Source of the DNA: Candidatus Gottesmanbacteria bacterium
Lineage (GTDB): Bacteria; Patescibacteriota; Microgenomatia; UBA10105; UBA927
DNA length: 64,000 bases
NCBI GenBank assembly: GCA_030679255.1
Contig: JAUXTO010000019.1
Span: forward strand, 1,699 to 65,698
Direction: 5' to 3'
Of the stretch, positions 2,024 through 58,042 are shown in pieces. Both the position numbers and the translations under genes were made by a program. The notes below the pieces were generated by a model, which was not told the DNA's origin, searched no databases, and saw only the letters and a program-made list of their open reading frames with translations. Positions within the stretch are counted from its first letter, which is position 1; every line of letters begins with the position of its first letter.

Positions 2024-2665
2024 TTATAAGCAACGATTATCCCAACGGGTCGGACTACATTGATTATAACAATTGCTATCCGCATATGACACGGGACAAG
2101 TACTCAAGTTCGTAGTTGAATTACATATTCCGTTCGCATCACAGGCATTAAATCCAGTCTGGAAGGGAGGCGTCGGTGTGGGCGTGTAATTGGGATTAAA
2201 TCCCGGTAGAGCCACCGTCGCACCGGAAGATATGCCATAATTAAATCCGACCCCAAATCCACACCCCGTCACGCCATTACACCCTTGTTTTCCGATGTCC
2301 GCGTCGCTTGTATCCCGCAGACTCGTAAACACCCGGTACCCACTGCACAAATTTGCATCATTGACTGGGACATATTTATACGGGAGTTTGGATACCGGGT
2401 CACAAGGAATCGCGGCAAGATACGGCTGAAGCGCGGTACCGTTGCACGTGCTTAAAACAGTCGCCGACGGATAGCACCCTTTATCGTTAAAATATTCTTC
2501 AAAGGCACGTTTAATGTCCGTGAGATGTTTTTTCCGCAGCACATCCTGGCCCCGGTTGATCTGCACGCGCCAATTGATGAAAATGACGCCCAAGATGAGG
2601 GCAATGATCGAGACAGCGATCATAAGCTCGACGAGGGTAAATCCGTGAGAGTACTTGTACTTCAT
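2024..2665 (-). CDS. Type IV pilin-like protein
   Basis: MKYKYSHG|FTLVELMIAVSIIALILG from the ATG at 2665. The C-terminus is Cys-rich. Confidence 0.65.
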   Translation of the reverse strand: MKYKYSHGFTLVELMIAVSIIALILGVIFINWRVQINRGQDVLRKKHLTDIKRAFEEYFNDKGCYPSATVLSTCNGTALQPYLAAIPCDPVSKLPYKYVPVNDANLCSGYRVFTSLRDTSDADIGKQGCNGVTGCGFGVGFNYGISSGATVALPGFNPNYTPTPTPPFQTGFNACDANGICNSTTNLSTCPVSYADSNCYNQCSPTRWDNRCL

Positions 2666-3124
2666 ATATTTATTGTGTACTATGTTTTTAATGGAGTCAA
2701 TGCGATGAAAGCACATCAACAGTATCGGCTACAATTCTCAGAAAAACTCATGGATCTAGGCAATCTCACTGCAGGGGCCCTTATTTTCGGACAATTTCTA
2801 TCAGGCAAGGAGTTTTCCTTATCGCTGTTTCTCGTCGGTATAGGGCTCATGGTATCGTGTTATACGATAAGCTTTCTCATTATCAACAGAAAGGAGGCAT
2901 CATGGAACCGGTAATATGGTTTTTACTCAGTATAATGGTCTTGGTTATTACAGGAGGTTTATTGGTCAATAAATATACAAAATAATCATGCCGATAAATT
3001 TAGATCAGGTACTCAACACAGGGTCACTGCTTCTTACATTATATGTCATCGCCGCAGTGCTTCTTTATGTCGTGTTTATCAAAAAATCATCAAAACCCAA
3101 ACGGGCATAACTCCCGACGGGTCT

Positions 3125-3388
3125 ATGAAAAAACCACTGAACATACCGACGTTTAAAAACGAGGACGAAGAACGCAAGTTTTGGCGGGCTCTTGATCTGT
3201 CCGAGTACTACGAACCCAAAGACCTCGTGCCCGTAAGTTTTCCAAACCTGAAGCCCACCACGCGGGCAATCTCCATCCGCATCCCGGAGTACCTCATAGA
3301 CCGGGTCAAGGAAAAAGCCAACGCGATCAACATACCGTACCAGTCCCTCATCAAACAGTACATCGCCTGGGGTACGGCTACCCCTTGA
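3125..3388 (+). CDS. CopG/BrnA-family type II antitoxin-like protein, with no toxin partner adjacent
   Basis: KNEDEERKFW...VSFPNLKPTTRAISIRIPEYLIDRVKEKANAINIPYQSLIKQYI matches the short RHH-type antitoxin family, recalled from memory. Confidence 0.55.
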   Translation: MKKPLNIPTFKNEDEERKFWRALDLSEYYEPKDLVPVSFPNLKPTTRAISIRIPEYLIDRVKEKANAINIPYQSLIKQYIAWGTATP

Positions 3389-3473
3389 CATCTCACCCGA
3401 AAAAAATAATTTTCCTTGTGGTATAGTACATTCATAACGCGTTTCCGGATAGAAATTTTCGACAGGAGGTACA

Positions 3474-3705
3474 ATGAAATTTCATTATTATCAAGACACC
3501 GATACGCTCTACCGATACGCTCTACATTGAACTCATGGATACGCCCAGCGCCGATACCCGTGAGGTGGTGCCGGGTGTCCTCATGGATTTGGATAGTAAA
3601 GGAAAACTCGTGGGTATCGACATAGACCACGCAAGTAATTTCGTCAATCTCACGAAGCTTGAAGCACAAGGCCTGCCAAACGCCCGCTTCTCCGTCCACG
3701 CGTAG
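3474..3705 (+). pseudogene. DUF2283-family small protein disrupted by a 13-bp tandem duplication
   Basis: Strong SD AGGAGG then ATG 3474. The duplication cgatacgctctac x2 at 3510-3535 creates a premature TGA. Removing one copy restores MKFHYYQDTDTLYIELMDTPSADTREVVPGVLMDLDSKGKLVGIDIDHASNF... Confidence 0.6.
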
Positions 3706-3765
3706 CGCACAAGCATAACTCCCATCTTGACATCCCGCCCGAAACTCCATACAACTATATAGAGC

Positions 3766-6540
3766 ATGTCCCTTGCCCGCACGTTTATTCGTCGTAAATT
3801 TCTCACATTGGTCGGATTGTCCCGAAGCTGTTCCCGATTCTTATCGGGATTACAGCATCGTGGATCCCGCTTCGCGGGAGTCGTATTTATATTGGTGTTA
3901 TTGGTCGGATTGGTCGGATTCTCCGCACCCCCTGCGGCGCACGCAGAGGTCGGTACTCTTGATCTGAAAGCATCAACAGCCTCCTACTCCGGCACCATGA
4001 CGCAAGCAGGCAACCAGCCACTCCGCACTGCATTTGGACCGCTTCGTTTTGATTATAAAAGCGGACCCAACACATGGACCACGGGATTTCTCATCCGCGA
4101 AGGAGATGGGAATGTATCCATAGGATCCAATATCACGAGTGCTGACTTTAATAGTACCAGCAAACTCCGGGTCCTGGGAATCGTTGAATCCACGACCGGC
4201 GGCTTCAAATTCCCCGACGGCACGACCCAGACGTCTGCTGTAACAGCAGCTGTGGGAGGCGGATGGACGGATGGAGGGACTGATGTGTATTTGACAACCA
4301 CGACAGATAACGTCGGCATCGGGACGACGACGCCGGGGACAAAACTTCATATACAGGGCGCGGATGGTGCTACTCCTCCTGTGCTTAAAATTTCAGGACT
4401 TTCAACAAGTGGTTCTGCTCTTGGGGGTTTGGTATTTTCGGATGCAGCAGGTAATGAGTATTCTGCAATAAGACAGTTTCATACAAGTCCTACAGTAGGT
4501 CTTTCTTTTGATGTGTGGACTGGTTCGGTATTAACCCCTAAAATGGTTATTAAAGGAGACGGCAACGTCGGCATCGGGACGTCGAGCCCGGGACTTTACA
4601 CTGGTGGAATGGGAACAAACTCGCTATATGTATCACTTAATGATGCTGAGGGTTCAGTACTGGAATTAGCTAGGGGCATAAATGGTGATGGAGGGGTGCC
4701 AGGCGTATTAGCATTTGTCAATCCAAATAACTCCAGTGTTACAACAAATAATGCAAATGCTCGTGTAGTCAGCGCGATTTATTCTGTGCTAGAAACAACA
4801 AATGTCAATGCAGGATTAGATAGTGGAGGACATCTCTACTTCGATACAAAACCAGAAGCAGGAGCAACGGCAACTCGCATGGTGATTACAAGTGCCGGCA
4901 ACGTCGGGATCGGATCTACCGCTCCGGGAGCGAAGCTCGAAGTTGCAGGCAACATTGACTCCTCTACCGGCGCCCTCCAGACGGCAGGGGTGACGCGGAT
5001 CGACAACTCCGGCGTCGGCACCCTCGCCGCAGGAACGACAATCGGAGGAAGCGCCGTTGGATGCTCAGGTGCTCCAAATAGCAGTGCCTGTCTCAAAGCC
5101 ACCGGCACCGGCACGGGGAGTACGGGGACGGGGAGTATTTACTTTTTGGATAGCAGTGGGGGCACAAGGGGAAGGTTTTCGACACTTCCGAGCGATGCTG
5201 CACTCGATACAAATTTTGGCACAGGAGCAGATGGTGCAGTCACCATTTCCACGGCAAAAAACATCAACACACAAACGATAAATACTGATAGAAGTTACGC
5301 TGATGGCATTGCCTATCGCGTCAACGCTCCAGCAGACAGCGCCACCAGTGTCACTCGCTACTCAGGTTCGGACACTCTCACAAATGGCCTGGTCGCAAAC
5401 GACGAGGTCCTGCTCATCAATATTCAGGGAGCTTCCGGCGACTCGGCAGATGGAGGAAATTACGAATTCATGAGAATAAAAAATATTTCAATAAGCACGG
5501 TAACTTTTACGACCGCTATAACAAAATCCTTCAACGGCACTACTGCTTCCAACCAAAAAGTCGTCATCCAACGTATCCCCCAATACACCAACGTCACCCT
5601 CTCCGGCTCCGGTTCTCTCACGGCTTCGGCATGGCAGGGGTTGACAACTACTCCCACCGGTGCCGCCGGATACCTCACCGGAATCGTCGCCTTTCGAGCA
5701 ACAGGGACGGTAAGTGTCGGAGCCGGAACGAGTATTACCACGACTAATTTAGGTTTCCGGGCAGGTCCCGGCAATCCTGCTCTCCAAGGTGAATCGTATG
5801 GAAATTATGGAACTGCAAGTAGTAATGCTAATCTTGGGGGCGGAGGAGGCGGTGGTAATTATGGAGGTGGAGGTGGAGGTGGTTACGCAGCTACAGGATC
5901 AAGTGGAACAAACGGCGGTACTCCAGGTACGGGGGGAACAAGTCATGGTTTAGCAGCATTAACAACATTATTTCCAGGATCCGGAGGTGGAGCTGGAGGG
6001 AATGATCCTGTGGCATCGCATGCGGGTGCTGGGGGTGGCGCAGGTGGAGGAATAATATTTATTGCCGGATCTACGGTAACAAACTCCGGAACAATCACCT
6101 CAAATGGTCAAGGGGGAACTACCCAAAATGGAGATGCCAGAGCGGGAAGTGGAGGAGGAGGCACGGGAGGCTCAATTTTCATAACAGGCAATACCATCAC
6201 TTTGGGAACAAGCATCGTGACCGCTTCGGCAGGATCGGGAACCGGCAGTGGACCTGGCACTGGTGGATACGGTGGAGCAGGGTCAGTGGGTCGTGTTCGA
6301 GTAGAGTATACTGGTTCTCTTTCCGGAACGACTTCACCGGCAGCCTCGACTGCCACCTCAATCTCCGCTAACGCACAAGCTCCTTCAAACACCGGAATCT
6401 ATGGCACTCTCTATCTTGGTGCCACCAATACCTCCTCGGCTGACTTGGCAGAATATTATGTGAGTGGTGACAGCTCCATCGCTGCGGGGGATGTGGTAGT
6501 CATAAATCAAAAGTCAAAAGTCAAAACGGGGAAGACGTAG
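3766..6540 (+). CDS. Large secreted Gly/Thr/Ser-rich repeat protein, tail-fibre-like
   Basis: N-terminal hydrophobic signal region. Repeated GNVGIGT(T/S)xPGxKL(H/E)(I/V) motifs at least four times, and long Gly-rich tracts. The stop TAG at 6538 lies inside an (AAAGTCA)2 repeat. Confidence 0.6.
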   Translation: MSLARTFIRRKFLTLVGLSRSCSRFLSGLQHRGSRFAGVVFILVLLVGLVGFSAPPAAHAEVGTLDLKASTASYSGTMTQAGNQPLRTAFGPLRFDYKSGPNTWTTGFLIREGDGNVSIGSNITSADFNSTSKLRVLGIVESTTGGFKFPDGTTQTSAVTAAVGGGWTDGGTDVYLTTTTDNVGIGTTTPGTKLHIQGADGATPPVLKISGLSTSGSALGGLVFSDAAGNEYSAIRQFHTSPTVGLSFDVWTGSVLTPKMVIKGDGNVGIGTSSPGLYTGGMGTNSLYVSLNDAEGSVLELARGINGDGGVPGVLAFVNPNNSSVTTNNANARVVSAIYSVLETTNVNAGLDSGGHLYFDTKPEAGATATRMVITSAGNVGIGSTAPGAKLEVAGNIDSSTGALQTAGVTRIDNSGVGTLAAGTTIGGSAVGCSGAPNSSACLKATGTGTGSTGTGSIYFLDSSGGTRGRFSTLPSDAALDTNFGTGADGAVTISTAKNINTQTINTDRSYADGIAYRVNAPADSATSVTRYSGSDTLTNGLVANDEVLLINIQGASGDSADGGNYEFMRIKNISISTVTFTTAITKSFNGTTASNQKVVIQRIPQYTNVTLSGSGSLTASAWQGLTTTPTGAAGYLTGIVAFRATGTVSVGAGTSITTTNLGFRAGPGNPALQGESYGNYGTASSNANLGGGGGGGNYGGGGGGGYAATGSSGTNGGTPGTGGTSHGLAALTTLFPGSGGGAGGNDPVASHAGAGGGAGGGIIFIAGSTVTNSGTITSNGQGGTTQNGDARAGSGGGGTGGSIFITGNTITLGTSIVTASAGSGTGSGPGTGGYGGAGSVGRVRVEYTGSLSGTTSPAASTATSISANAQAPSNTGIYGTLYLGATNTSSADLAEYYVSGDSSIAAGDVVVINQKSKVKTGKT

Positions 6541-6557
6541 ACAATAAAGGAGTTTTG

Positions 6558-7061
6558 ATGAAGGCGGAGAAGGCGTATGATCAAAAACTCATCGGTATCA
6601 TCTCGACCAATCCCGGAGTCTTGATGGGAAGTATTGAAGGAGAGAACAAGGAAGATAAACGGATGCTCGCCCTTGCGGGGAGAGTGCCGGTGAAGATTGA
6701 CCCGGAATCCCCTACTATAGAAGTTGGCGACTTTTTAACCTCAAGTGATAAACCCGGACTGGCGATGAAAGCCACCAAGGCAGGATATGTCGTCGGAAGG
6801 GCGCTGGAAAAATGGACCCCCCTTCGCCAAGGCTTCGGAGGGGCAAGCAAAATTGAGGCTTTTGTGTCACTGAGTTATTACATGGGCGAGCTCAATGAAA
6901 AAGGCGATCTGCGTACCTTTACTGCAGACACAATTAAGGCAAACACCGTATCAACAAAGATGCTCAATGTTGGTGGGGTGGATGTCATAGACAGGATGAA
7001 CAAACAGCAAACCGAAATAGACGACCTCAAGAGACGGTTGGAAACGGTAGAAAAACGGTAA
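6558..7061 (+). CDS. C-terminal module of the fibre protein (KAYD..IGIISTNPG..LAGRVPVKID..GDFLTSS.. then a coiled coil), now in a different frame from 3766..6540
   Basis: This frame is open from 6471. The conserved DLAE-Y..GDVV.. motif is split across the two ORFs. An AAGGAG sits 8 nt upstream of the ATG. Confidence 0.5.
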   Translation: MKAEKAYDQKLIGIISTNPGVLMGSIEGENKEDKRMLALAGRVPVKIDPESPTIEVGDFLTSSDKPGLAMKATKAGYVVGRALEKWTPLRQGFGGASKIEAFVSLSYYMGELNEKGDLRTFTADTIKANTVSTKMLNVGGVDVIDRMNKQQTEIDDLKRRLETVEKR

Positions 7062-8782: not shown

Positions 8783-9003
8783 CCCACACCCTGAGTACCA
8801 CCCTTCGGGTGATTTACGTTCACACCTCTTCTTGACACGGCCTTTGGCCCCCATGCTTCGGGTTTGATAAGAAAAACTTCGTACATTAGTTAGATATTCG
8901 TTCTTGAGTACTCCGTAAGAGAATAAATTCCCCATAATTTGACAATTTCGGGGAATTGTAAGCACCACCCTTCGGGTGGACTAACTTCGCAAATAGAACT
9001 CAT

Positions 9004-9292: not shown

Positions 9293-9481
9293 CACTCTGA
9301 CCCCACCCTTCGGGTGGACTAGCTCCTGCCCGCTTCGCCTGAGCTTCAGCGAGACGAGCCCGCAATGCTTTCCGCATACCCGCCAGCAACGCTTCGCGTA
9401 GCGATGCGGGCTGGGCTCATGCAGGCGGGTCGCACCTTTTCTTACAAATACCATGGTAAAATACCATGGTGAAAAAAGAAC

Positions 9482-12961: not shown

Positions 12962-14059
12962 TTATCCGTCGTGCTTCACCCGTCCGGCGAGGGCTCCGGC
13001 GAAGATGAAACAGTAAAGGATAAGCCCCATGAAAAAGCCTTTGATGGAAAAGACAATCCCCTTCTCCTTTACCATGAATGCGAGGAATTTACGGGTGAGG
13101 AAGAGATGGAGGAAGAGAATGACCAATGACCAATACACAATGACCAATGGATAATAACAGGAAAAAATACTCACCACATTTGACATTTGACATTTGACAT
13201 TTGACATTGCGGGAAGCGTAGGGAGAAGCAAAAGACTTATCAGTCCGAAGAAGACCGTACCGACACCAGTCACCGTGGTGAGCGCTTCCTGCAATGTCGT
13301 GGCCACCGGATCAAATTTTTTCCGACGTTGATAAAGTTTCGTCCAGTAGTATGCCCGCAGAAAATATTTTTTGGCGACGGGCCAAAAGGACTCAAACTCG
13401 TGCCGGACGCGGACGTTGGGGGCAAAGATAATTGCGTAGCGCCGGGCTATTCTATAGGTGAGTTCAATGTCTTCCACGAGCGGGGCCGGATACGTCTCGT
13501 CAAAGCCACCGAGGCGCTGGAAGACGGTTTTTTTAATCGAAGCAATGCGAGTGGAAAATAAAAAGTAGTACCCGCTTTTGTCCCGCTCGTTGATCCAATA
13601 CGACCAGTCGCGCAGGGCTTTGTAGTTAGGAAAAAAAGCTTTACTGCGCTGCTCTTTCACCCATACACCGGTGACGGCGACCACATCCGGATCATCCTGG
13701 TAAATCTTGGCTAAATTGTGCAGCGTATCGGGAAACAGCTCGACGTCGCTATCGAGAAATACGACGAATTTCCCCCGGGCTACCTTTACCCCTCTGTTGC
13801 GCGCCACCGCCGGCCCCATATTCTTATGCAGCGTCACGACACGAAGTGAAAATTTTGAATTTACTTGCCCGCCGAAGCCTTGGCGAAGGCGGGTTTGGAA
13901 TTTGGAGCTTGGGATTTGGAATTTCGTCGACGATCCATCGTCAACGACGATCACCTCATATGAGGGAGCCTTTTTCGACCCCTGTATTGACCCGAGAAGC
14001 CGCCCGATGGTCTCAGACGAGTTGTGGTAAGGAATGATGAGAGAAAGGAATGGTTTCAT
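12962..14059 (-). CDS. GT2 glycosyltransferase with a C-terminal membrane region
   Basis: LSLIIPYHNSSETI...YEVIVVDDGSS...FLDSDVEL. Contains in-frame (TTTGACA)4 and (ATGACCA)n tracts. Confidence 0.65.
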   Translation of the reverse strand: MKPFLSLIIPYHNSSETIGRLLGSIQGSKKAPSYEVIVVDDGSSTKFQIPSSKFQTRLRQGFGGQVNSKFSLRVVTLHKNMGPAVARNRGVKVARGKFVVFLDSDVELFPDTLHNLAKIYQDDPDVVAVTGVWVKEQRSKAFFPNYKALRDWSYWINERDKSGYYFLFSTRIASIKKTVFQRLGGFDETYPAPLVEDIELTYRIARRYAIIFAPNVRVRHEFESFWPVAKKYFLRAYYWTKLYQRRKKFDPVATTLQEALTTVTGVGTVFFGLISLLLLPTLPAMSNVKCQMSNVVSIFSCYYPLVIVYWSLVILFLHLFLTRKFLAFMVKEKGIVFSIKGFFMGLILYCFIFAGALAGRVKHDG

Positions 14060-26451: not shown

Positions 26452-26561
26452 GTCATCCCCGCGCTCCTTGTTGTCATTCCCGCCCGCCGCGACGGGTAAA
26501 CTCCGGCGGGAATCCATTCCTCATTTTAACACTGGATCCTCGGGTCAAGCCCGAGGATGAC
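26452..26561. repeat. MITE-C, a bipartite hairpin element (GTCATYCC...GGRATGAC). It provides the C-terminus and stop codon of the 26474 gene.
   Basis: gtcattcccgcc..ggcgggaatcc .. ggatcctcgggtcaagcccgaggatgac. Confidence 0.7.
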
Positions 26562-27781
26562 AATAATGAAATGAGCAGTTCTACCCCACTCCCCGCCCAA
26601 AGGCTCAAAATAGGGTAATAGACGAGCGTGTGGCGACTTTCGTTGGAGAGGAGTGGGAAGAGGAACGTAATGTAACAAAACAAGAGTGTTGAAAAAAGAA
26701 AAACAGGTTCGCCCAAAACCTTCTTACCTTTCCCCCCTACCTGCCGGAGTATCCCCACGAACCACATCCCGATCAGGGTTATATTCAGGATCCGCATGGG
26801 CCACTGATCCCACGGATAAAATTTATCAACATACGTATAGATATGATCCTTATCCCACAGCCACACGACGTTCATGGCAATATTGGAAAGGAACGTGGGC
26901 CACTCCCCCGGCAGACGCGCGAGAAGCATGCCTTTATATTTTTCCGAATGCGCGGCTTTGCCTTCGAGCGGCGTGTTCCAATAGCTCTGGACAACCTGCC
27001 CGTACTCGGGAATCTCGCCTTTAAACTCGACCTCCGGATACTTCCACCGGAAAAAGTTGAGGTAGATGATTTCATACTTGAGGTTATACGGCGGGACGAG
27101 CGAGACTTTGCCGAACGTTTTATAATTGACGATCAGCGAATAGGACGAGGCGAGGAGAAAACCGGCAAGCAAAAACGCCAATAATTTCCCTCCCCGAAAT
27201 ACCCCAAATTCCCTCAAAGCCCCAAATCCCAGTATTCCAAAAAAGACAAACAGGAAGTAGTAAAACGAATGGCGGGTAAAAAGAAGAAGCCCGGCCGTCA
27301 GCCCAAAGCCAAGCCAAAGGAACGCGTGCGTCCGAAGCGCCGGCCGCGAAAGGATATACACGAAAAGTGATACAAGGAAGATACTCACGGTTTCGGCTAG
27401 AGCTAGGCCGGTAAACGCGGCAACAAAGGGATTAAAGAGGTAGATAATAAATGAGAATAACGCTGCCTTCTGATTGAATAGTTTTTTGGCAGTTTCATAA
27501 AGAAGGATGGCGGAAGTGAGATCAATGACGATGTGGACCAATCGGACGGCAGTAAGATTTTCAATTCCAAAAAAGTTGTAGATGACCGCCAAAAACGCTC
27601 CGTAGCCCATATTTTTGGCACAGCAGTCGATGGGCCATTTCCCTAGAAGAAATTGAATAGCAAAATCCGAATAGCCTTTGCTGTCAAAAACTATCGTATT
27701 GTAAGCGTTAAACGCGAGGATCAGGCGGAATACCAATCCCCCCAGAAAAAGCCAAATCAATAATTTAGTCTGTTTCGTCAT
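26474..27781 (-). CDS. ArnT/PMT-like GT-C membrane glycosyltransferase
   Basis: Polytopic; N-terminal loop motif similar to the other ArnT-like paralogs. Confidence 0.5.
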   Translation of the reverse strand: MTKQTKLLIWLFLGGLVFRLILAFNAYNTIVFDSKGYSDFAIQFLLGKWPIDCCAKNMGYGAFLAVIYNFFGIENLTAVRLVHIVIDLTSAILLYETAKKLFNQKAALFSFIIYLFNPFVAAFTGLALAETVSIFLVSLFVYILSRPALRTHAFLWLGFGLTAGLLLFTRHSFYYFLFVFFGILGFGALREFGVFRGGKLLAFLLAGFLLASSYSLIVNYKTFGKVSLVPPYNLKYEIIYLNFFRWKYPEVEFKGEIPEYGQVVQSYWNTPLEGKAAHSEKYKGMLLARLPGEWPTFLSNIAMNVVWLWDKDHIYTYVDKFYPWDQWPMRILNITLIGMWFVGILRQVGGKGKKVLGEPVFLFSTLLFCYITFLFPLLSNESRHTLVYYPILSLWAGSGVELLISLLSSSGLTRGSSVKMRNGFPPEFTRRGGRE

Positions 27782-36685: not shown

Positions 36686-38920
36686 CTAAATAGCTAGCTT
36701 CGCAAGGCCTGGCCTTGCGAAGCTAAAGATAATGACAAGTATGGTCAATATGCTTATTGCGGCGCCCCAAAGGACGATCGTTGGGCGGTAGGAAAAGACG
36801 ATCGTGTGGGTGCCCTTCGGGAGATAGAGCGTCCGGAAGGCGGCGTTGCTTTCAAAAATCGGAGTGCTTTTGCCGTCAACCGTTGCCTTCCATCCCGGAT
36901 ACATAACTTCGCTTGTGGCAAGAAACGCGTTACAGGGAGTAGCCGCGGTCAGTGATATTTTTCCATATCCGTAGGAATTGACAGTGACCGTTCCTTTAGT
37001 GTCCGCCGGACAATCCGGATTGAATCCCGATACATCCACTCGAGTCCCGTCCACGATGATTGTCGTTTTCGGGTCCACGCTCCCACGTTTGATTGCTGAT
37101 AATACCGCTTCCCTATTAGGTTCTTTTTGCATCTTCGTTGCGATAAAAAAGCGAGGGCTTACATTTTTATTTTCATACAACCTCCATCCGCGATTCTTAT
37201 TTTCTCTCACTAACTCAAATTGTTTCGTTGAAATATGTTTGATGGCATCACTCGCTATCGGCACGAGAATGTATTTAATGTTGAGATAATTTAAGTACGG
37301 TGATGTGATAGCACGAAACGGCGGGGTGGACTCGCTGTAGGAAAGCACGTCGGTAAATTTGTACCCGTTGGCGGCAAGGAGAAATTCGTACATATTGCGA
37401 AGTGGTGGCGTATCGTAACCGGATACGGACTGAATTTTATGCGCAATCGGCGCGTTAAACTCGAGGACGTCCCGCAGGGGATCGCCGTGATAAAAATTCG
37501 GGAGAAAACGATAGAGACTTTTGTCATTGATAAACGCGGAAACTAATGCGGTATCCTCGCTTTTTTCCGGAATGGGAACCAATGAAAGGTGGCGGCGGGC
37601 AAACGGAACGAGATCAAGGAGGAGTAAACCTACAACAATCACCTGCAATATTTTTGATTTGACCATGCTCAATCCAATTCCAAATAATACACTTGCCGAC
37701 AGCACAAAAAGCACGATGTGCCGAGCCGGAATACGGATTTGGCTGTAGAGAGGCATCCACGAACGAACCCAAGAAAAAAGATCGAGGGGCGCGTTCTGCC
37801 CCAACCACATCCATATCCCAAAAATACCGACGAGGACAAACGCCGGAATTTCCCACGATGTTTTCTTTTTCACGACCCACGAGGCGACCGCTAGAAGTGC
37901 AAAGAGAAGCGATACTTTTCCAAAGTACCCCACGTGCTCAAATCCGAAGCCCGAGTCCGGCAGACGCGAGTAAAAATAAAATGGATCTATAAATTCAAGC
38001 AGGTGTCCGACTGTCGGCGTCCCAAGTTGGGCCCAACTATCCGGAAACGAAAACGTCCGGATGCTATGGGCTATGAATTGGGCGTTGGGGAGAAGTTGGA
38101 TTACTGCCAGACCAAATCCGATTAATATTGCAGCTCCGACACGAACCATTGGTTGGAAAATAATAGATAGGTTAAGAGTTGTCATCCCCGTGCCTGTAGG
38201 GGATCCAGTTTTTACTCTGGATTCCCGCGTACGCGGGAATGACTGAAAAATATTATAGCATTGATAAATCAACATCATGATAAACACTCCTTCCAGCGTA
38301 AACACTGCAACCATCGGATGACCAGCCAATAGCTGTATGGCCAACGCCACCCCGGCAAACGCGATGTTTTTTCTGCTGATAGCTGATAGCTGACCCGCTT
38401 CGCCAAAACAGCGAGGCGAGCAGCTGAAAGCTAAAATCACCCACGGCATCCACGCCGATGCAGCAATGATATCGATGTGTCCGGCTGGAATGCGGGCCAC
38501 AAAGTACGCGGACAATCCGAAGGCGACTCCCGCCCCCCACGCGGCAATTTTTGACATTTGACCTTTGATATTTGACATTGCGCGAAGCGCGCAGTACATC
38601 CCGGACATCGCGATAAACAGATGCAGGGCAATGTACCAGGAAATAGCAGCATTGGTGGGCAACAATACAAATAAAATATTCGGGAGATACCAAAAGGGAA
38701 TTTGCGGATGCTCAAGATATGGCTGACCGCCGAAAATGTACGGATTCCACCACGGAATAGTTCCCAGTTTAAGCGACTCCCCCAAAAACTGCCGCTGCCA
38801 ATAATGGTACCGCCAGATATCCGGTCCAAATAATATTTTTCCCTCCGGTGGCCATAGAACTCCCCAAAACACCACGAGAACAAGGATGGCATAGGCCAAA
38901 AATGGAAAAAACTTTTTCAT
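36686..38920 (-). CDS. YfhO-family membrane glycosyltransferase, paralog A
   Basis: WWNPYIFGGQPY...SAWMPWV...C-terminal YPGWKATVDGK..AFR..LPKGTHTIVFSYRP. Carries in-frame MITE-C, Elem-F, an SSR and a terminal REP. Confidence 0.7.
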   Translation of the reverse strand: MKKFFPFLAYAILVLVVFWGVLWPPEGKILFGPDIWRYHYWQRQFLGESLKLGTIPWWNPYIFGGQPYLEHPQIPFWYLPNILFVLLPTNAAISWYIALHLFIAMSGMYCALRAMSNIKGQMSKIAAWGAGVAFGLSAYFVARIPAGHIDIIAASAWMPWVILAFSCSPRCFGEAGQLSAISRKNIAFAGVALAIQLLAGHPMVAVFTLEGVFIMMLIYQCYNIFQSFPRTRESRVKTGSPTGTGMTTLNLSIIFQPMVRVGAAILIGFGLAVIQLLPNAQFIAHSIRTFSFPDSWAQLGTPTVGHLLEFIDPFYFYSRLPDSGFGFEHVGYFGKVSLLFALLAVASWVVKKKTSWEIPAFVLVGIFGIWMWLGQNAPLDLFSWVRSWMPLYSQIRIPARHIVLFVLSASVLFGIGLSMVKSKILQVIVVGLLLLDLVPFARRHLSLVPIPEKSEDTALVSAFINDKSLYRFLPNFYHGDPLRDVLEFNAPIAHKIQSVSGYDTPPLRNMYEFLLAANGYKFTDVLSYSESTPPFRAITSPYLNYLNIKYILVPIASDAIKHISTKQFELVRENKNRGWRLYENKNVSPRFFIATKMQKEPNREAVLSAIKRGSVDPKTTIIVDGTRVDVSGFNPDCPADTKGTVTVNSYGYGKISLTAATPCNAFLATSEVMYPGWKATVDGKSTPIFESNAAFRTLYLPKGTHTIVFSYRPTIVLWGAAISILTILVIIFSFARPGLAKLAI
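36696..36724. repeat. REP-A palindrome forming the 3' end (FARPGLAKLAI-stop) of YfhO paralog A
   Basis: Exact palindrome. Confidence 0.9.
38181..38243. repeat. MITE-C element in-frame within YfhO A (adds SFPRTRESRVKTGSPTGTGMTT)
   Basis: gtcatccccgtgcctgtaggggatcc agtttttactct ggattcccgcgtacgcgggaatgac. Confidence 0.75.
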
Positions 38921-40026
38921 GATTTTGTCTGGATAGTTCCGAGTACTGCAAGAAGAGCCTCATAGCTTGCCCCGCGTACATCGATCCATTTCGCGTTGAT
39001 CGACTGGGCAAGACCATTGTCATCATCGCTGTTGCCCAAGACGACCACCTTGTCAAATTCAGTCATTTTTTTACCAAGCGAAAAGAGCGCGTCGGTCACC
39101 ATGGCCGGAGAAGGTTTACGCTTCGTCGTCTTTTTGACAAAGGATGTTTTCCAGGCGATCTCAGGGTGGGATCCTACAAACTCGGCATCCACATCCGGAC
39201 AATACTGCCAAGAGTCGATTTTAATTCCCTGTTTTTTGAGTAAATCATTGACTGCCTCATTAACCTCATCCACTTTTTTCTCATCAAAGTATCCCCGCGC
39301 GACACCGGATTGATTGCTGACGACTATCTTCGTTGTTTTATATTTCGTCTGCATGTAGGAGAGGAAGCTCACAACCGGCATGTTAAGGGTAATTTTTTTC
39401 TTCCAATCTTCTGTTCGGCCTAAAAAATCGTCGTTTGTGATGAGCGTTCCGTCGCGGTCAAGAACAACCAATAATCGTTTTGAGGGGATCTTCTGTTGGA
39501 TATAATCGATGACTTCCGTCGTCGAAAGCTTCGGGTCATCGGTATAGGCCATTGTGCCGCCAACGGCTTTTATTGCTTCACGCTCACTGGTAATCCCCGG
39601 CGTTTGTTTGCCGATAAAATCCGGACCTTTCATATACATCGAGGGCTTGAGCGCGTTGATCACGTCTACGCCGAGTTTAACGTCCGTAACAACAACGTAA
39701 TCTACCATCCGCAGATTGGCAATCATGTACGCGCGTAATGTATCAGGAAATATCGGCCGCCCCGCGCCTTTCCGGCCCTCTACAAACCGGTCGCTCGTCA
39801 CAGAAACGACAAGTACGTCGCAGAGTTTTTTAGCCGACTCAAAGTGTTTGACGTGGCCGGGATGCAGAAGATCAAATCCCCCGTGGCAAAGCCCGACCGT
39901 TTTCCCCTCCTGACGAAGCCGACGGATGACCGATGCTGCGGCGGCAAGCGAAATAATTTTCCCGGACGTATATATTTTTGTCGATGAGATCTGCATCATA
40001 AATTTATCATGGTACGCCCTGATCAT
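38917..40026 (-). CDS. Bifunctional nucleotidyltransferase (HldE/RfaE domain II-like) fused to a HAD phosphatase (GmhB-like)
   Basis: GLCHGGFDLLHPGHVKHF (HxGH cytidylyl/adenylyltransferase) plus VVLDRDGTLI (HAD motif I). Start trimmed to an ATG overlapping the stop of YfhO B. Confidence 0.6.
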   Translation of the reverse strand: MIRAYHDKFMMQISSTKIYTSGKIISLAAAASVIRRLRQEGKTVGLCHGGFDLLHPGHVKHFESAKKLCDVLVVSVTSDRFVEGRKGAGRPIFPDTLRAYMIANLRMVDYVVVTDVKLGVDVINALKPSMYMKGPDFIGKQTPGITSEREAIKAVGGTMAYTDDPKLSTTEVIDYIQQKIPSKRLLVVLDRDGTLITNDDFLGRTEDWKKKITLNMPVVSFLSYMQTKYKTTKIVVSNQSGVARGYFDEKKVDEVNEAVNDLLKKQGIKIDSWQYCPDVDAEFVGSHPEIAWKTSFVKKTTKRKPSPAMVTDALFSLGKKMTEFDKVVVLGNSDDDNGLAQSINAKWIDVRGASYEALLAVLGTIQTKS

Positions 40027-42296
40027 ACCCGCTTTTTCATCCAAATCAAACAGCCAAGAAGGGTCATGAGACTCACAAAGATTCCCATGATAAATACCGT
40101 TGGCCGGTAAACCATGACCATGGTGTGTTTCCCTTTGGGAATGACGACCGTCCGGAACGCAAGGTTGCCTTCAATGAGTTTCGCCGGTTTCCCGTCAATG
40201 GTAGCCTGCCAGCCCGGATACATCACCTCACTGGTTGCGAGCATGGCGTTACACGGCGTATCGGTCTTCAAAATTATTTTGTTCATGGAATAGGACGCGA
40301 CCGTAACCGGCGGGAGCGGTTGACTACCGCAATTGAACGCAACATCAGAGGGAACATCCTTTTGTTGCACTAAAACGACTTTTCCCGGATCATGCTCCCC
40401 TGCCCGGATGGCACGGGCAATGGACGGGCGATCAGGGAGTCCAACAATCTGTGAAGCAAGAAAAAATCTGGGTAACACGGTGGTGTTTTCATACAGACGG
40501 AAATAATCTTTTTTGTTTTCCTCCATAACTAATTTATACTTCGGCGAAGATCCGGCAACCGAGTCAAACCAGGACGGGACAAAAATATATTTGACGTTGA
40601 GAAAATCCACATACCGCGAAGACGGTTTTAAATACGGAATCTGTACATCAGTTTGCTGGACGTCCGGGTTTTCGACCCCTGCAACGGCGGCCCCAAATTC
40701 ATAGTAGTTGCGCAGGATAGCCGGGTCATACCCCGATGCACTGTAGAGCCGATAACCCATCGCAGCGTCAAAATCCAGGGCATCGCGCGTCCCCATGCCG
40801 ACGTTAAAGTTGGGAAGAATCCGCGCCATCCCCAAATTCTTTTGAAGGTAGCTCACTAATTCTTGATTATGCCGCGTCGCCGGATCGGGCCGCAGGACAA
40901 CAAAGTTTTTTGCAAACCAGAGCATATCAACAGTGATAAACAATGAAATTATGAAAACAGCTAGCTTCGCAAGGCCAGGCCTTGCGAAGCTAAGATTCTT
41001 CAAATAATTCAAGCCGATGCCGGCGAGGGCGCTCATGCCGAAGACAAAGAGAATAAGATGGCGGGAAGGGATTCGGAGATATTTATATATTGGAACGGTG
41101 TCCCAGAGAATTTTATTGAGGTCGATGGGCGCGTTCCAGCCGAGGGAAACCCACAGGCCGAAGATTGCAATACACACCATTGCACCGCCAAATACTAATA
41201 CTTGGCGGTCGTGAGTGAACAATTTCGTGACGGGGTTACTTCGTTTAATAATCATTTGAAGGACATGAATGACGAATGCAATGATAGAAATCAATGCAAG
41301 CAATAGTCCCCCCTTGCCCATATATGCCGCCATTTCGCCGAAATTGGGACTTGGACCTTTATAACTCCATGGGAATCCGAGGACAAACGGATCAATAAGT
41401 TGCTTGAGATTGCCGATCGTATACGATCCAAACACTGCCCATGAGTAGGGCAATGGATAGGTCCGGATGCTTGCGCGAAAAAATTCCTGACCGGGAAGAA
41501 TCTGGATAGCTGATAAGCCAAGCCCGATAATTACCGAGAGTCCTGCATATAAAAAAGGTTTCACACTTCTTGCATTGATGCATTGACCCACGGACACCAT
41601 GCCGACGGCAATGACGGTCATCATCGCCATCGTCTGATACCCCGCCAAAATCTGCATGGCAAATACTATCCCGGCAATAACGCAATTTGTTTTCCATTTG
41701 ACATTTGACTTTTGACATTTGACATTTGCCCATACCACCCACGGCATCCAGGAGGCCGAAAGGATAAGCTCTATATGCCCTTCCCAAATCCGCCCCATAA
41801 AAAAGCCGGAAAGGCCAAAGACTAATCCTGCGATCCAGGGACCAATAGGATGGAGGACATAAGACATAGGACGTAGGATAGAACTGTTTTTGATTCCATT
41901 GGAAATTGGTAATTGGTCATTGGTCATTACACTTCTGATCAGGATGTACATCCCCAGCATCGCCCAAAAGATGTGCAGCGGAATGATCCATGAGTAGACG
42001 AAGCGGTATGGCATCAGGGCAAAGAGCCAATTGACGGGATACCAAAATGCGAGCGACGGGTTAGCGATCAACGGCTCGCCGGAAAACAGGTACGGATTCC
42101 ACCACGGAAACTCCCCACGGGCAAGAGCGTCACCAAATAATTGCCGGAAAAAATGATACGACCGATGGATGTCATCGCCAAATACGAGCGTCCCCGGCGC
42201 AGGCCACAGGATAGGCCAAAAAACAAAGAGCACGATGGCGAGATAAAAAATGGCAGCGACAATGTACGGATTTTTCAGTACTCTCACGATTCTCAT
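40023..42296 (-). CDS. YfhO-family membrane glycosyltransferase, paralog B
   Basis: WWNPYLFSGEP; SASWMPWVV; C-terminal YPGWQATIDGK. Contains in-frame REP-A and SSR tracts. Confidence 0.7.
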   Translation of the reverse strand: MRIVRVLKNPYIVAAIFYLAIVLFVFWPILWPAPGTLVFGDDIHRSYHFFRQLFGDALARGEFPWWNPYLFSGEPLIANPSLAFWYPVNWLFALMPYRFVYSWIIPLHIFWAMLGMYILIRSVMTNDQLPISNGIKNSSILRPMSYVLHPIGPWIAGLVFGLSGFFMGRIWEGHIELILSASWMPWVVWANVKCQKSNVKWKTNCVIAGIVFAMQILAGYQTMAMMTVIAVGMVSVGQCINARSVKPFLYAGLSVIIGLGLSAIQILPGQEFFRASIRTYPLPYSWAVFGSYTIGNLKQLIDPFVLGFPWSYKGPSPNFGEMAAYMGKGGLLLALISIIAFVIHVLQMIIKRSNPVTKLFTHDRQVLVFGGAMVCIAIFGLWVSLGWNAPIDLNKILWDTVPIYKYLRIPSRHLILFVFGMSALAGIGLNYLKNLSFARPGLAKLAVFIISLFITVDMLWFAKNFVVLRPDPATRHNQELVSYLQKNLGMARILPNFNVGMGTRDALDFDAAMGYRLYSASGYDPAILRNYYEFGAAVAGVENPDVQQTDVQIPYLKPSSRYVDFLNVKYIFVPSWFDSVAGSSPKYKLVMEENKKDYFRLYENTTVLPRFFLASQIVGLPDRPSIARAIRAGEHDPGKVVLVQQKDVPSDVAFNCGSQPLPPVTVASYSMNKIILKTDTPCNAMLATSEVMYPGWQATIDGKPAKLIEGNLAFRTVVIPKGKHTMVMVYRPTVFIMGIFVSLMTLLGCLIWMKKRV
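40963..40991. repeat. REP-A palindrome in-frame in YfhO B (SFARPGLAKL)
   Basis: agcttcgcaaggccaggccttgcgaagct. Confidence 0.9.
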
Positions 42297-44637: not shown

Positions 44638-46775
44638 AGAGAGGTGCGGATATCATAAGACTTCTTCCATAAAAATACCATGATACCCGCGGTAATGAAC
44701 GAGATGACTCCCCCGATGACGAAAATCCTGGGATTGTACCGATAGATGACGGTGTGGTTTCCTGCGGGGACAAAAAGTGCTCGGAATGCATTGTTTGCCT
44801 TGATTATCTCTACCTTTTGTTCATCGATAAATCCTTCCCATCCGGGGTAATATACTTCGGAACTCATGAGTGTTGCCCCAGTGGTGGACTGGGTTGACAG
44901 GATGATTTCGTTGGGTGAATATTTTACGATATTCACCTTCCCCTCTTTATGATCGGCAAAATAGAACCTTGGGAAGACCGTGGTATTTTCATACAATCTA
45001 TAATCACGAGCCACATCTTCGCGGATGAGACGGAATCTCGGGTCTTTCGTACCAAAAAGTGGATCGTACGCGCGCGGGTGGAGAATATATTTGATGTTGA
45101 GGAAATCCGTGGCTTTGGAAAATATATTCAAGTACGGAATCTGCACATCATGATCGAGAATACTCGGCGTCGTCTTGCCATTGGACGCATCAATAAATGC
45201 ATAATACGGTTTTAGTATCATCGTGTCGTAGCCGGTCGCATTAAAAACACCGTACTGCATCCCCGCGTCGAAATCAAAACTATCCCGGGGTGGTGCCCAC
45301 GCGCCGAAGTTAGTAAGAACTCTATACGGATCGCGGTTTTGTTTAAGAATCTTAATAAGGTCAACGTCGTGGCGCGTCTCGGGAACGGGCTTGAGGGTGA
45401 TGAAGTGATGGGAGTAAAAAATCATTTCCGCCGCGATGAGTACTCCCGCGATTCTCACAATGTGCTGAGAGCGGATTGCGTGAATGGACATCCCAATAAG
45501 TCCGCTGAGCCCAAAGGCAACGAGGATGAGATGGCGCGGAGGAATACGAAGGAATTTATACGTGGGGACAAGCTTCCAGAGGATATATTGCAAGTCAATG
45601 GGGGCGTTGGGACCCATGGATACCCAGAGACCAAAGAAGGCGATACAACCGAACGCGAGTATCATAGGTGACTTAGGTATCTTAAGTACCCTCGGTAACC
45701 GAAACAATAAAACTGCCAGAACAACGAGCAACCCCACTCGTCCCACAAAAAACGCATGTTCGGCAAAATTGGGTGGCGGGCCGCTATAGGTGAGTTGATC
45801 CCCAAAGAAAAATGGGTTAAAAAATTGCCCTAAACTCCTCCACTCAAACGATCCGTATGCAATCCAGGAATACGGAAGAGCGTATGTCCTTATGGTTTGA
45901 CGAAAAAACTCCTGTTGAGGGAGAAGGACCACCGCAAAAAGTCCGATAGCCAGAAGCACGCTCAAGGCGATACTCGCAATGACGATCACTATCCTCTTCA
46001 TACTTGCCCGTTGAGAAATAAACGTGATCGCTGCCATGATCCCCACTGCCTCGAGCGTCAACATAGCCATCGTCTGATACCCGGCAAACAACTGCATGGC
46101 CAAGACTACCGCAGCGATAACAATCCTCCGCCGCTCCTGGTATTTTTGTGTGTATTCTTCCAGTTTTGAATTTTTAGTTTTGAGTTTTGAGATTGCGCCA
46201 AAGGCGCATACCACCCACGGCATCCACGAGGCCGCAGCAATCACATCCACATGCCCGGCCCAGATGCGGGCGGCAAAGAAGCCGGAGAGACCGAAAACGA
46301 GACCGGCGATCCACGGACCAATAGGATGGAGGACATAGGACATAGGACATAAGATAGAGAAATTGCTCTTTTCATTGGATAATTTGATTATTGGATTATT
46401 GGATAATTCCCTGCGAAGCAGGGTATACATCCCCGTCATCGCCCACAGGAGGTGTAGGGCGATATGCCACGAATACGCAATATTGAGGGGCAAAAGTACG
46501 AAAAGCCAATTCGGTGGATACAACATGTTGACGATCGGATGGGCTATAAACGGAGTCCCTGCGAAGTTGTAGGGATTCCACCACGGCCAGACGCCTTGAG
46601 CCAAAAAGTTGTTGAAAAATTGCCGGTAAAAATAATACGCCCGGTGGATATCGTCGCCCCAGATCATCTCCGTGGCTCCAGGAATGAGCGCGCGGCCAAA
46701 CACCACCGCGACCGCCAGCGCGTAGAACGCGATCGGCACACCATACGGCCACACCCTACGGAAAAACGATCTCAT
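44634..46775 (-). CDS. YfhO-family membrane glycosyltransferase, paralog C. Start trimmed to an ATG overlapping the methyltransferase stop.
   Basis: WWNPYNFAGTPF; AASWMPWVV; C-terminal YPGWEGFIDEQ..AFRALFVPAGNHTVIYRY. Confidence 0.65.
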   Translation of the reverse strand: MRSFFRRVWPYGVPIAFYALAVAVVFGRALIPGATEMIWGDDIHRAYYFYRQFFNNFLAQGVWPWWNPYNFAGTPFIAHPIVNMLYPPNWLFVLLPLNIAYSWHIALHLLWAMTGMYTLLRRELSNNPIIKLSNEKSNFSILCPMSYVLHPIGPWIAGLVFGLSGFFAARIWAGHVDVIAAASWMPWVVCAFGAISKLKTKNSKLEEYTQKYQERRRIVIAAVVLAMQLFAGYQTMAMLTLEAVGIMAAITFISQRASMKRIVIVIASIALSVLLAIGLFAVVLLPQQEFFRQTIRTYALPYSWIAYGSFEWRSLGQFFNPFFFGDQLTYSGPPPNFAEHAFFVGRVGLLVVLAVLLFRLPRVLKIPKSPMILAFGCIAFFGLWVSMGPNAPIDLQYILWKLVPTYKFLRIPPRHLILVAFGLSGLIGMSIHAIRSQHIVRIAGVLIAAEMIFYSHHFITLKPVPETRHDVDLIKILKQNRDPYRVLTNFGAWAPPRDSFDFDAGMQYGVFNATGYDTMILKPYYAFIDASNGKTTPSILDHDVQIPYLNIFSKATDFLNIKYILHPRAYDPLFGTKDPRFRLIREDVARDYRLYENTTVFPRFYFADHKEGKVNIVKYSPNEIILSTQSTTGATLMSSEVYYPGWEGFIDEQKVEIIKANNAFRALFVPAGNHTVIYRYNPRIFVIGGVISFITAGIMVFLWKKSYDIRTSL

Positions 46776-53122: not shown

Positions 53123-53494
53123 GAGGATTTAGGAGGAAGTAGGAGATGTTCGGAGAAAATCGGAACAGATACAGACATACGGGAGATTTACGGGAGCTTA
53201 CGGGAAAATACGGGAAGATACTTGAATACACACTTCGTTTGACTTCCTCTCTCTCTCTCTCTCTCTGTAAAATCCCCACTATAGGATAGACAACGAACTC
53301 ACCGTTAAACCCTTCTATCTGCGGGAGATCGTTTGACCGCGTTGGTTGTCCAACCTATGTGTCTTGCACATTAACAACGTGCCTCCTTCTAATTCCGTTG
53401 TACCACGAGCGTCTGCCGACTCCGGACTCTTCTGGTACAACGGAAAAATTGTACCCGTGAAAAAAAGTATTTTTTATGCCAAAAGGAGGCAGCT

Positions 53495-53680
53495 ATGTCA
53501 AAAAGTTTAACAATTTTTAGAGTGTTGTGGACCATCCTTAGCATCATCCTGTTTTTCTATATATTGGCCCAAGTGCCAACACCGATGCTGTTAGGCAATA
53601 TGCTGGCCGCACTGTTTATCAGTGCATGCGCCTGGGGTGGAGGGCTCATGGTCGCGAGCGCATTTACCACAAAAACTTAA
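53495..53680 (+). CDS. Small two-helix membrane protein, hypothetical
   Basis: Strong SD AAAAGGAGG, 6 nt, then ATG. Hydrophobic 61 aa. Confidence 0.4.
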   Translation: MSKSLTIFRVLWTILSIILFFYILAQVPTPMLLGNMLAALFISACAWGGGLMVASAFTTKT

Positions 53681-54410: not shown

Positions 54411-55163
54411 ATGAGTGATGAAGTATCCGAAGAGCCCACTGGTGATATCTCTAAAACGCTTCCGGTGATCGGGGGGGCGTTTTTAATTCTAGTGGCCATC
54501 GTATTCCTTGCCTACCAATACAGCAAACCCCGGCCGGGGACGGTGGTTTTGCCGGGAGGGATAACGTATTTGGGGCCAAGTCCGACAGAGAGTCAAAAGT
54601 CTCCGCCAAAGGCGGACCAGCCTCTGGCCGGGAAAGTCGAAAGTCAAAAGTCAGCGCAAGAGAACGTGGCGGAGGCGGAGCGCTCTCGTTTCACAACTGA
54701 TGCATCGGTACCCTGGACCACAGTGAAAAGCACGAAGTATGGCTATACTTTTTCCGTCCCGGAGACACTCACCCTTGAGCCATTTCTCACCGATGAGTTT
54801 GATGCGTATGCCATCACCTGGAACAATGTATCTAAAGAAGCCAATGTCCTGGTCGGCGTGGAAAACTTATCCAACGACGACAAACGCGCTCCGTACGTCA
54901 AAAAGACCAAAAAAGAATATATCGAATCATTTTGGTCCAAACAATACAATCTGACCGGAGTCAAACAGATCACATCATTCACCAATAAAAAAGGATTGAA
55001 AGGCTACAAGGTGAAATTTCAAACGGCGGGTGGCGTATCCCCCTTTGACGATGTGTTTCTGGAAGTTCCGGCAAAACCGAATCTCCTCATCCACCTATCA
55101 AACGCAATTATCGAAGGGAAATTGTTTGATAAAATCGTGGACAGTGTCGCTTGGGGACAATAA
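54411..55163 (+). CDS. N-terminally membrane-anchored extracytoplasmic hypothetical protein
   Basis: A single TM segment near the N-terminus, then a soluble domain. Confidence 0.4.
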   Translation: MSDEVSEEPTGDISKTLPVIGGAFLILVAIVFLAYQYSKPRPGTVVLPGGITYLGPSPTESQKSPPKADQPLAGKVESQKSAQENVAEAERSRFTTDASVPWTTVKSTKYGYTFSVPETLTLEPFLTDEFDAYAITWNNVSKEANVLVGVENLSNDDKRAPYVKKTKKEYIESFWSKQYNLTGVKQITSFTNKKGLKGYKVKFQTAGGVSPFDDVFLEVPAKPNLLIHLSNAIIEGKLFDKIVDSVAWGQ

Positions 55164-57921: not shown

Positions 57922-58042
57922 AAGTCCGTAAAGTCAAAAAGTCCTTAAAGTCCGTAAAGTCAAAAAGTCCGTAAAGTCCGTAAAGTCCGTAAAGTATTTG
58001 ACTTTATAGACATTCGACTTTATAGACTTTCGACTCTAAGTT

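Follow-up and report, generated by a model that had tools for sequence, protein, structure and literature searches.

A fibre gene of Candidatus Gottesmanbacteria broken at a heptanucleotide array: probable slippage loss of one repeat unit, with a dedicated phase switch looking unlikely

When two adjacent open reading frames (ORFs) meet at a short tandem repeat, are they two genes, one gene that has been broken, or one gene that is switched on and off? The question is raised by a locus in a 64,000-nt stretch ("the window") from a metagenome-assembled genome of Candidatus Gottesmanbacteria, an uncultured groundwater bacterium of the candidate phyla radiation (CPR). An original prediction, made from the letters of the window, held that a heptanucleotide repeat sits exactly where a frame break separates a fibre protein (ORF1) from its conserved C-terminal module (ORF2), and it proposed a slipped-strand contingency switch, with a very recent 7-nt deletion or two real genes as fallbacks. 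Our analysis favours the deletion: the gene is natively single, and its present allele is probably a null left by a recent slipped-strand contraction of one unit in the course of array turnover. We regard a dedicated phase switch as unproven and unlikely. The elements at the break are as follows.

3766-6540, forward strand: ORF1, 924 amino acids (aa), N-terminal 84% of the fibre gene, deposited as hypothetical protein MDP1722089.1 (Q8L37_02675)
6471-6540, forward strand: 70-nt overlap, free of stops in the ORF1 frame as well as in the -1 (ORF2) frame
6498-6526, forward strand: heptanucleotide array AGTCATA AATCAAA AGTCAAA AGTCAAA A, site of the putatively missing unit (TRF, 4.1 copies, 86% match)
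6538-6540, forward strand: TAG stop of ORF1, reached solely through the frameshift
6547-6552, forward strand: AAGGAG, a Shine-Dalgarno (SD)-like motif with 5 nt spacing to ATG 6558; K-G-V codons in the ancestral frame
6558-7061, forward strand: ORF2 (ATG 6558, stop 7059-7061), 167 aa in the -1 frame, C-terminal 16% of the fibre gene, deposited as hypothetical protein MDP1722090.1 (Q8L37_02680)

All that the original prediction had read directly from this region (ORF coordinates, frames, tract and open overlap) was confirmed. ORF1 ends in ...GDVVVINQKSKVKTGKT followed by TAG, and the sequence at the break is gtc ata AAT CAA AAG TCA AAA GTC AAA ACG GGG AAG ACG TAG. The perfect period-7 run is 20 nt long (6507-6526, 2.9 units) and includes (AAAGTCA)2 at 6510-6523. 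The window has two occurrences of this exact 14-mer where 0.02 would be expected, so the tract is no chance feature. Its unit of 7 nt is not divisible by three and lies within the coding region. The -1 frame has a stop at 6468-6470 and is open from 6471 on through ORF2; since both frames are open only over 6471-6540, a frame-restoring indel must fall there. Adding one AAAGTCA after 6523 fuses the native 924-aa and 167-aa ORFs, with no stop, into a single 1100-aa ORF reading ...KSKVKSQNGEDVDNKGVLMKAEKAYDQKLIG..., and the junction peptide predicted for the fused protein is KSKVKSQNGEDVDNK. In the -1 frame of the window, the codons for the 14 residues NGEDVDNKGVLMKA lie mostly 5' of the ORF2 start codon, so this stretch is ancestral coding sequence and no leader.

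Using the C-terminal 222 aa of the fused protein as a query, we recovered ORF2 itself and 36 homologues, of which P0002-P0008, P0014, P0015, P0018, P0021 and P0022 cross the junction in one ORF. For each half of the module, upstream and downstream, we then ran hidden Markov models (HMMs) on the stop-to-stop translations of 45 loci fetched from ENA, Logan, JGI and GTDB genomes. Both halves lie in the same stop-free frame in about 23 loci, which is every locus with both halves detectable except the window itself and L003, a contig full of frameshifts. Because the module is in a single frame in these loci, we reject the idea that the genes are natively two, and the boundary between them also falls inside a domain. 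By comparison with single-ORF homologues, ORF1 and ORF2 are thus one natively single gene, and they share one contiguous conserved module, as the original prediction had proposed.

One relative carries the in-frame form of the same array. This is L001 (ENA ERZ2470813), about 80% identical to the window in nucleotides and 73% in amino acids. Where the window has ata AATCAAA AGTCAAA AGTCAAA ACGGGG, L001 has ata AGTCAAA x4 ATGGGG, an array of 4.3 units of AGTCAAA at the same place and exactly 7 nt longer. A single 7-nt gap aligns the two sequences, with 326 of 410 nt identical and the remaining codons all in register. L001 reads in frame across the junction (...QKSKVKSQNGEDVDNKGVLMKA...), and its single-frame peptide ...SQKSKVKSQNGEDVDNKGVLMKA... 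matches the predicted fusion: it has exactly the allele that one more AAAGTCA would make. The known alleles are therefore two, of 3 and 4 units, in lineages about 80% identical in nucleotides; no conspecific sequence was found in the databases searched.

Could the two halves nevertheless work as a split gene, with ORF2 translated alone (from AAGGAG-N5-ATG, or by reinitiation 17 nt past the ORF1 stop) and complementing ORF1 in trans? The AAGGAG is strong and ideally spaced, and the relatives have a weaker AAGGGT or AAGGGC at this position; ORF2 is intact and constrained, and the deposit annotates both ORFs as proteins. Against this, AAGGAG doubles as conserved K-G-V codons of the ancestral frame, and a crude first-start analysis finds SD-like motifs at only about 7 of 60 ORF starts in the window, so that SD-driven initiation is not the norm and the motif is weak evidence for a separate gene. 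The break lies inside a single beta-rich domain and not at a domain boundary, and the arrangement was seen at no other locus examined. Phage-spike intramolecular chaperones are reported to act in cis, which also counts against complementation. We consider a functional split gene very unlikely.

What, then, is the module that the break interrupts? Its parts can be placed as follows.

6400-6504, forward strand: N-terminal part of the module (YGTLYLGATNTSSA/DLAEYYVSGDSSIAAGDVVVI) in the ORF1 frame (N-part HMM E-value 1e-18)
6549-6815, forward strand: core of the module (GVLMKAEKAYDQKLIGIISTNPG...LALAGRVPVKI...GDFLTSS..PGLAMKATKAGY..ALEKW) in the -1 frame
7014-7058, forward strand: C-terminal helix (EIDDLKRRLETVEKR), from the homologue alignment and helix 257-273 of the P0002 model; a probable trimerising coiled coil

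A profile of 23 homologues, searched against PDB sequences, had as its best match the C-terminal fragment of the phage phi29 pre-neck appendage protein gp12 (3gqh_A), with a weak E-value of 0.086. We find the alignment convincing in its residues despite this E-value (DFAEYFES..GYLVTL..GKIRKAEK..KIIGVISE vs DLAEYYVS..GDVVVI..GVLMKAEK..KLIGIIST), and the module agrees in fold with the gp12 C-terminal fragment (3GQH). A cleavage-site motif, consisting of a small residue followed by D-x-A-E-Y, stands at the domain start: SSA/DLAEYY of the fibre aligns with residue 1 (DFAEYF) of 3gqh_A, and the motif is conserved in the homologue alignment. The 3gqh_A chain has 163 residues, the first being the Asp of DFAEYF, and its start matches the fragment released by cleavage at Ser691/Asp692, where Xiang et al. 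reportedly found in 2009 that gp12 is cut. By analogy we predict an autocleavage site at A892/D893 (codons 6439-6444). In the domain search of the fused sequence proposed in the original prediction, Pfam Peptidase_G2 (PF11962) matches across the break, since profile positions 45-99 are covered in the fused sequence and 163-209 in ORF2, but the best score, 21.1 bits for the fused C-terminus, does not reach the gathering cut-off of 25; sub-threshold matches occur in two of 23 family members. Taken as sequence evidence, these results identify the last ~210 residues as a phi29 gp12-type (Peptidase_G2-like) auto-chaperone domain followed by a short coiled coil, with autocatalysis and chaperoning putative.

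The likeness to gp12 (Peptidase_G2 in MEROPS and Pfam; PDB 3GQH) thus consists of the motif D-[FL]-A-E-Y-[FY] right after a small residue, and of a domain that forms the C-terminal end of a long, beta-rich fibre or spike. There are also differences: the module has 26% identity to gp12 and scores under the Pfam threshold, a hypervariable loop is inserted at the place of gp12's tight hairpin, a further coiled coil follows at the end, autocleavage is only predicted, and the fibre protein, unlike gp12, has an N-terminal signal-like segment, is cellular and has no relatives in IMG/VR. A second parallel is offered by the Peptidase_S74 chaperones (those of endosialidase K1F, T5 pb1 and the GA-1 appendage), in which a C-terminal domain likewise nucleates trimer folding and is then cut off (PMC4690869), but these have another fold and a Ser-Lys catalytic motif, and we found no Peptidase_S74 sequence or fold match in the fibre module.

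This identification corrects one point of the original prediction. Rather than lying between the fibre and its C-terminal module, the break falls within the auto-chaperone module, about 30 residues past its start. In the structural model the tract corresponds to residues 100-118, a loop between strands 96-99 and 119-121 (pLDDT, the predicted local distance difference test, 62-68). Among relatives this loop is hypervariable in length (18-114 nt), and it holds other period-7 arrays: AGCGCAA in L002, ATATCAG in L007 and CAAATCC in L009. In general, the loop is a place where insertions at the DNA level gather. In L004 (~745-810), L006 (minus strand, ~8930-8990) and L012, and in proteins P0004, P0007 and P0019, we observed GC-rich, palindromic, in-frame inserts in the same loop, such as cattcccgcGCAGgcgggaatc and atccccgaTCGGAGtcggggat.

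The fibre itself is a cellular protein, by its sequence a secreted surface fibre of ~1100 aa, and not a phage product; a viral origin was rejected for lack of IMG/VR relatives. Near its start is the following feature.

3874-3945, forward strand: N-terminal hydrophobic segment ...AGVVFILVLLVGLVGFSAPPAAHA/E, read from the ORF1 translation; likely a signal peptide or membrane anchor

Read directly, ORF1 has GNVGIGT repeats and glycine-rich stretches, with a weak AgmC_N-like match. MDP1722089.1 and MDP1722090.1 are each singletons in a collection of 15 billion proteins. Searches of PHROGs and NCBIfam gave marginal matches only, Rfam and tRNA scans gave none, and the window contains no paralogue of the fibre gene. 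Around the gene is an island for glycan biosynthesis with YfhO-like, PMT_2, GT2, DegT and cytidylyltransferase genes.

What does the break do to the protein, and how old is it? Spike fragments that lack the gp12-like D4 domain, called an auto-chaperone, are insoluble (PMC13317679; for C-terminal intramolecular chaperone domains of spikes see also PMC4690869). The ORF1 product keeps only the first ~30 residues of its domain, losing most of what such fibres require for folding and trimerisation, and so would probably be unable to assemble, which would make the present allele a null (OFF) form. ORF2, on the other hand, has not decayed. Its core has a ratio of non-synonymous to synonymous divergence (Ka/Ks) of 0.08-0.09 where computable in comparisons with five relatives, with Ks above 1, and it retains all near-invariant residues. 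Since ORF2 shows no decay, either the frameshift arose late compared with the divergence of the species or the cell still uses ORF2. From the sequence we infer a recent event, and the fallback of a very recent 7-nt deletion is the best fit to a fully constrained ORF2.

Two further explanations would leave the gene intact. In the first, the full-length protein is still made from this sequence, through programmed -1 ribosomal frameshifting or through transcriptional slippage at the A-rich tract. Both frames overlap over 70 nt, and the tract has A_AAG and A_AAA_G motifs, which in E. coli are known sites of single-tRNA -1 slips. However, the 0 frame contains no canonical X_XXY_YYZ heptamer, the A-runs are only 4 nt long, the downstream sequence has no stimulatory structure (fold of 6516-6620, z = -1.1), and no homologue needs a frameshift, all being in one frame. 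With neither slippery heptamer nor downstream structure, we rejected a programmed frameshift as having next to no probability. In the second, the break is an assembly or consensus artefact: the population would be mostly 4-unit and in frame, and the assembler would have collapsed the repeat or taken a minority path. Short tandem repeats can yield bubbles in assembly graphs, and this species has been sampled only once, both proteins being singleton clusters. But the 28-nt repeat is shorter than usual k-mers and reads, a 7-nt deletion is atypical as a sequencing error, and the rest of the window is dense with long intact ORFs and without any other repeat-associated break. An artefact is, in our judgement, quite improbable.

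Four points are shown by these data: the two ORFs descend from a single gene, the window differs from an in-frame relative by exactly 7 nt, the domain is identified, and the break falls in a loop. The loss of 7 nt by slippage is, from the sequence, the most likely event behind them. We propose that the array, in a surface loop between two beta-strands of the auto-chaperone domain, would have lost one unit by replication slippage (4 to 3, with 2.9 perfect units left). Translation would then quit the ancestral frame after ...NQKSKVK and terminate five codons on, leaving the 167 remaining codons behind as a seemingly separate ORF. Regain of a unit could restore the gene, but with so short a tract this would be a slow, weakly reversible switch at most. 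The break would then be a by-product of the heptamer-array turnover that pervades the lineage, with no dedicated high-frequency contingency locus.

A true contingency locus would share the mechanism: slipped-strand unit loss is common to switch and accident, and only its rate and adaptiveness differ. The array would be kept as an ON/OFF switch, with the assembly having caught the OFF state while 4-unit ON cells coexist. Several observations fit this. The non-triplet unit lies inside a coding region where one unit more or less toggles the frame; a natural in-frame allele with one more unit exists in L001; the gene encodes a secreted fibre in a glycosylation island whose YfhO, PMT_2 and GT2 genes also bear heptamer arrays; ORF2 is undecayed; and the orthologue in L002 is also off through a frameshift. 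There are precedents in the heptanucleotide tracts of neuO and hmw1A (PMC13001214, PMC2651432). In neuO, which encodes the CUS-3 prophage O-acetyltransferase of E. coli K1, the array is (AAGACTC)n with 3-53 copies (mode ~20 units), is ON if n is divisible by 3, and is OFF in 66% of genomes (PMC13001214). Like the fibre gene it has a 7-nt array within the ORF, in which one unit shifts the frame, with an effect at the surface (PMC13001214), and three units make a 7-aa polar peptide that the protein tolerates. It differs in having long arrays at the 5' end with measurable variation within a culture, whereas the fibre array, as assembled, numbers 3-4 units and sits inside a folding domain, 84% of the way along the gene. 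In Haemophilus influenzae, heptanucleotide simple sequence repeats (SSRs) within ORFs include (AATTTTG)14 in the adhesin gene hmw1A and (AACAACC)8-13 in a TonB-dependent receptor gene (PMC2651432). Here the likeness is that an SSR lies far within a large gene for a surface adhesin or fibre and that some genomes have frameshifted alleles (PMC2651432), and the difference is that those tracts have 8-14 units and belong to an established repertoire of contingency loci, while the fibre tract is short and its host is an uncultured CPR bacterium.

The evidence on length, frequency and stability goes the other way. The perfect tract is 2.9 units in the window and 4.3 in L001, short of the at least eight heptamer units of characterised loci and far below the 8-53 units of characterised heptanucleotide switches. 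Among ~58 period-7 arrays in the window and the fetched loci, the fibre array alone gains ORF length when one unit is added or removed, so one array in ~58 is out of frame, against 66% OFF for neuO. In a syntenic sister species the heptamer arrays are identical across four independent assemblies (99.97-100% identity). Between the window and L001 the tract has no more DNA conservation than its flanks, and the grouping of copy numbers at 4-5 and 7-9 indicates that purifying selection keeps the arrays in frame. A true contingency locus is thus a possibility that we take seriously but think unlikely, and the switch claimed in the original prediction remains unproven.

Some observations pull against the explanation by a slippage-born null allele. 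L001, the sole relative sharing the AGTCAAA array, is a contig of 2.1x coverage, so its copy number is weakly based; it has several frame changes in the glycine-rich part upstream of the module, while the module and tract region is one clean frame. In L002 (Logan SRR22388048), the nearest orthologue of full length, the frame is broken too, at a G-rich run, which could mean that the fibre gene is often switched off. The loss of function of the truncated product is argued from phage homologues and may not carry over. The allele is known from an assembly alone, and a mixed population of 3-unit and 4-unit cells, which would be true phase variation, may exist. The gene class, a surface fibre inside a surface-glycan island, is typically under contingency-locus control. 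As to L002, its break lies at ~1187-1215 in the G-rich run (GGGGGAGGAGGGGGGGAGG), where removing 11 nt (equal to adding 1 nt) restores a frame of 683 codons; it could be a real homopolymer variant or a sequencing error. We discarded it as a repeat-associated break, because a 1-nt homopolymer change explains it better. In L039, the closest syntenic genome, the contig ends before the fibre orthologue.

How unusual is such an array in this genome? The statement that heptamer tracts are abundant elsewhere held up: the window has 21 period-7 arrays compared to 1.13 expected (30 dinucleotide shuffles, with a maximum of 3 per shuffle), a ~19-fold excess, and 15 period-9 arrays compared to 1.6 expected (~10-fold). 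Of the period-7 arrays, 19 lie inside long ORFs, mostly for multi-pass membrane proteins of glycosylation; their host genes include GT2, PMT_2, three YfhO-like genes, NPCBM and other membrane proteins. Examples are given here.

13176-13208: period-7 array
38550-38579: period-7 array
41695-41728: period-7 array
46162-46191: period-7 array
48143-48198: period-7 array
49059-49088: period-7 array
54633-54653: period-7 array
56404-56463: period-7 array

Across the window and the fetched loci, copy number is 4-5 in 34 arrays and 7-9 in six, with almost none between. These clusters are the signature of selection for frame, in which 1+3 or 1+6 units survive. Certain units recur in unrelated genes (NGTCAAA, GTCCTAY, TTCCAAA and CAAGCAY), and the same array pattern is present in L005, L009, L015, L016 and L026 and absent from more distant relatives.

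The array block of the GT2 gene at 12962-14059 (minus strand; block 13112-13214) can be followed across Gottesmanbacteria, where orthologues have an array at the same site.

L039, 10821-10921: GT2 block
L043, 1131-1228: GT2 block
L044, 1143-1245: GT2 block
L045, 986-1094: GT2 block

The units are lineage-specific (AATGTCA, TGTCAAC, AGTGCAG, AGTGTAG and AGAATGG), all units having changed in concert. About 25-30 nt downstream is a second array that is the G-U-tolerant complement of the first. Together they give sense-strand hairpins of up to 31 bp, with z of -3.4 to -5.7 in three of five orthologues, and 8 of the 23 consensus pairs show double (compensatory) changes. Shorter GT2 orthologues lack the whole block of ~100 nt (~30 aa). 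Either an in-frame palindromic insertion or selection on an RNA structure may lie behind it; the palindromic elements of Rickettsia are comparable in-frame insertions. For the fibre tract we found no such complementary partner array, and its flanks fold with z of only -0.3 and -0.4.

On a broader reading, the fibre tract would be one member of a lineage-wide array system maintained in Gottesmanbacteria and related Patescibacteria, with the fibre gene caught OFF; we give this only a small chance. The features behind it are arrays in coding loops of surface-fibre and glycosylation genes, frame-preserving copy numbers, concerted homogenisation and, in some cases, hairpin pairing. The arrays would then be genome-wide low-rate contingency switches, or RNA-level regulatory or mobile in-frame elements, and no mutational debris, which we likewise regard as doubtful.

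Several other repeats were seen along the way. The AATGACC array at 41898-41928 (minus strand, in ORF 40023-42296) reads TTA in the unit with a would-be in-frame TGA, which suggests that it arose at the DNA level and was then purged of the stop codon. At 57921-58035, between two large genes, 8.6 copies of a 9-nt repeat containing AAAGTC are followed immediately by repeats containing GACTTT, forming an inverted array pair on the hexamer of the fibre tract. The intergenic region at 53100-53270, after ORF 51263-53122, has TAGGAGGAnn x3-4 (period 10), ACGGGAnnnT x4 (period 10-11) and a perfect (CT)10 at 53247-53266, upstream of a small SD-led membrane ORF (53495-53680). At 3018-3112 of L005 a ComEC-like gene is in two ORFs on the minus strand, a membrane domain (3095-3994) and a metallo-beta-lactamase domain (2233-3018), whose 77-nt gap is largely two arrays, TAAATAC x4.9 and TTAGTGC x2.6; as a repeat-caused break it was rejected, for unit removal failed to join the halves. 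A 13-nt tandem duplication at 9446-9474 (AAATACCATGGTA x2.2) adjoins a TTGACA box. It was rejected as a gene break: the sequence looks non-coding and the long ORFs there look spurious. Many ATGs in the window stand 5-10 nt after a TATAAT- or TATAGT-like box, for example at 3766, 10932, 26474-27781 and 49563-51215, which, with the low number of SD-like motifs, suggests widespread leaderless or SD-independent initiation.

The annotation of the locus can now be corrected, MDP1722089.1 and MDP1722090.1 being halves of one fibre gene. Its C-terminal module can now be called a gp12-like auto-chaperone, one that serves fibres of CPR bacteria which are cellular and not of phage origin. Frameshifts at SSRs in genes for surface proteins are a known type of event; the lineage-wide heptamer arrays are the more unusual lead, and we found no literature linking SSR-type switching or heptanucleotide arrays to CPR bacteria or Patescibacteria. 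The 19-fold enrichment of arrays, their clustered copy numbers and their concerted evolution in conserved genes point to an unusual mutational or selective regime. In CPR bacteria, which spend their lives attached to host cells, on/off variation of a surface fibre would, if true, bear on this attachment and on evasion of phages.

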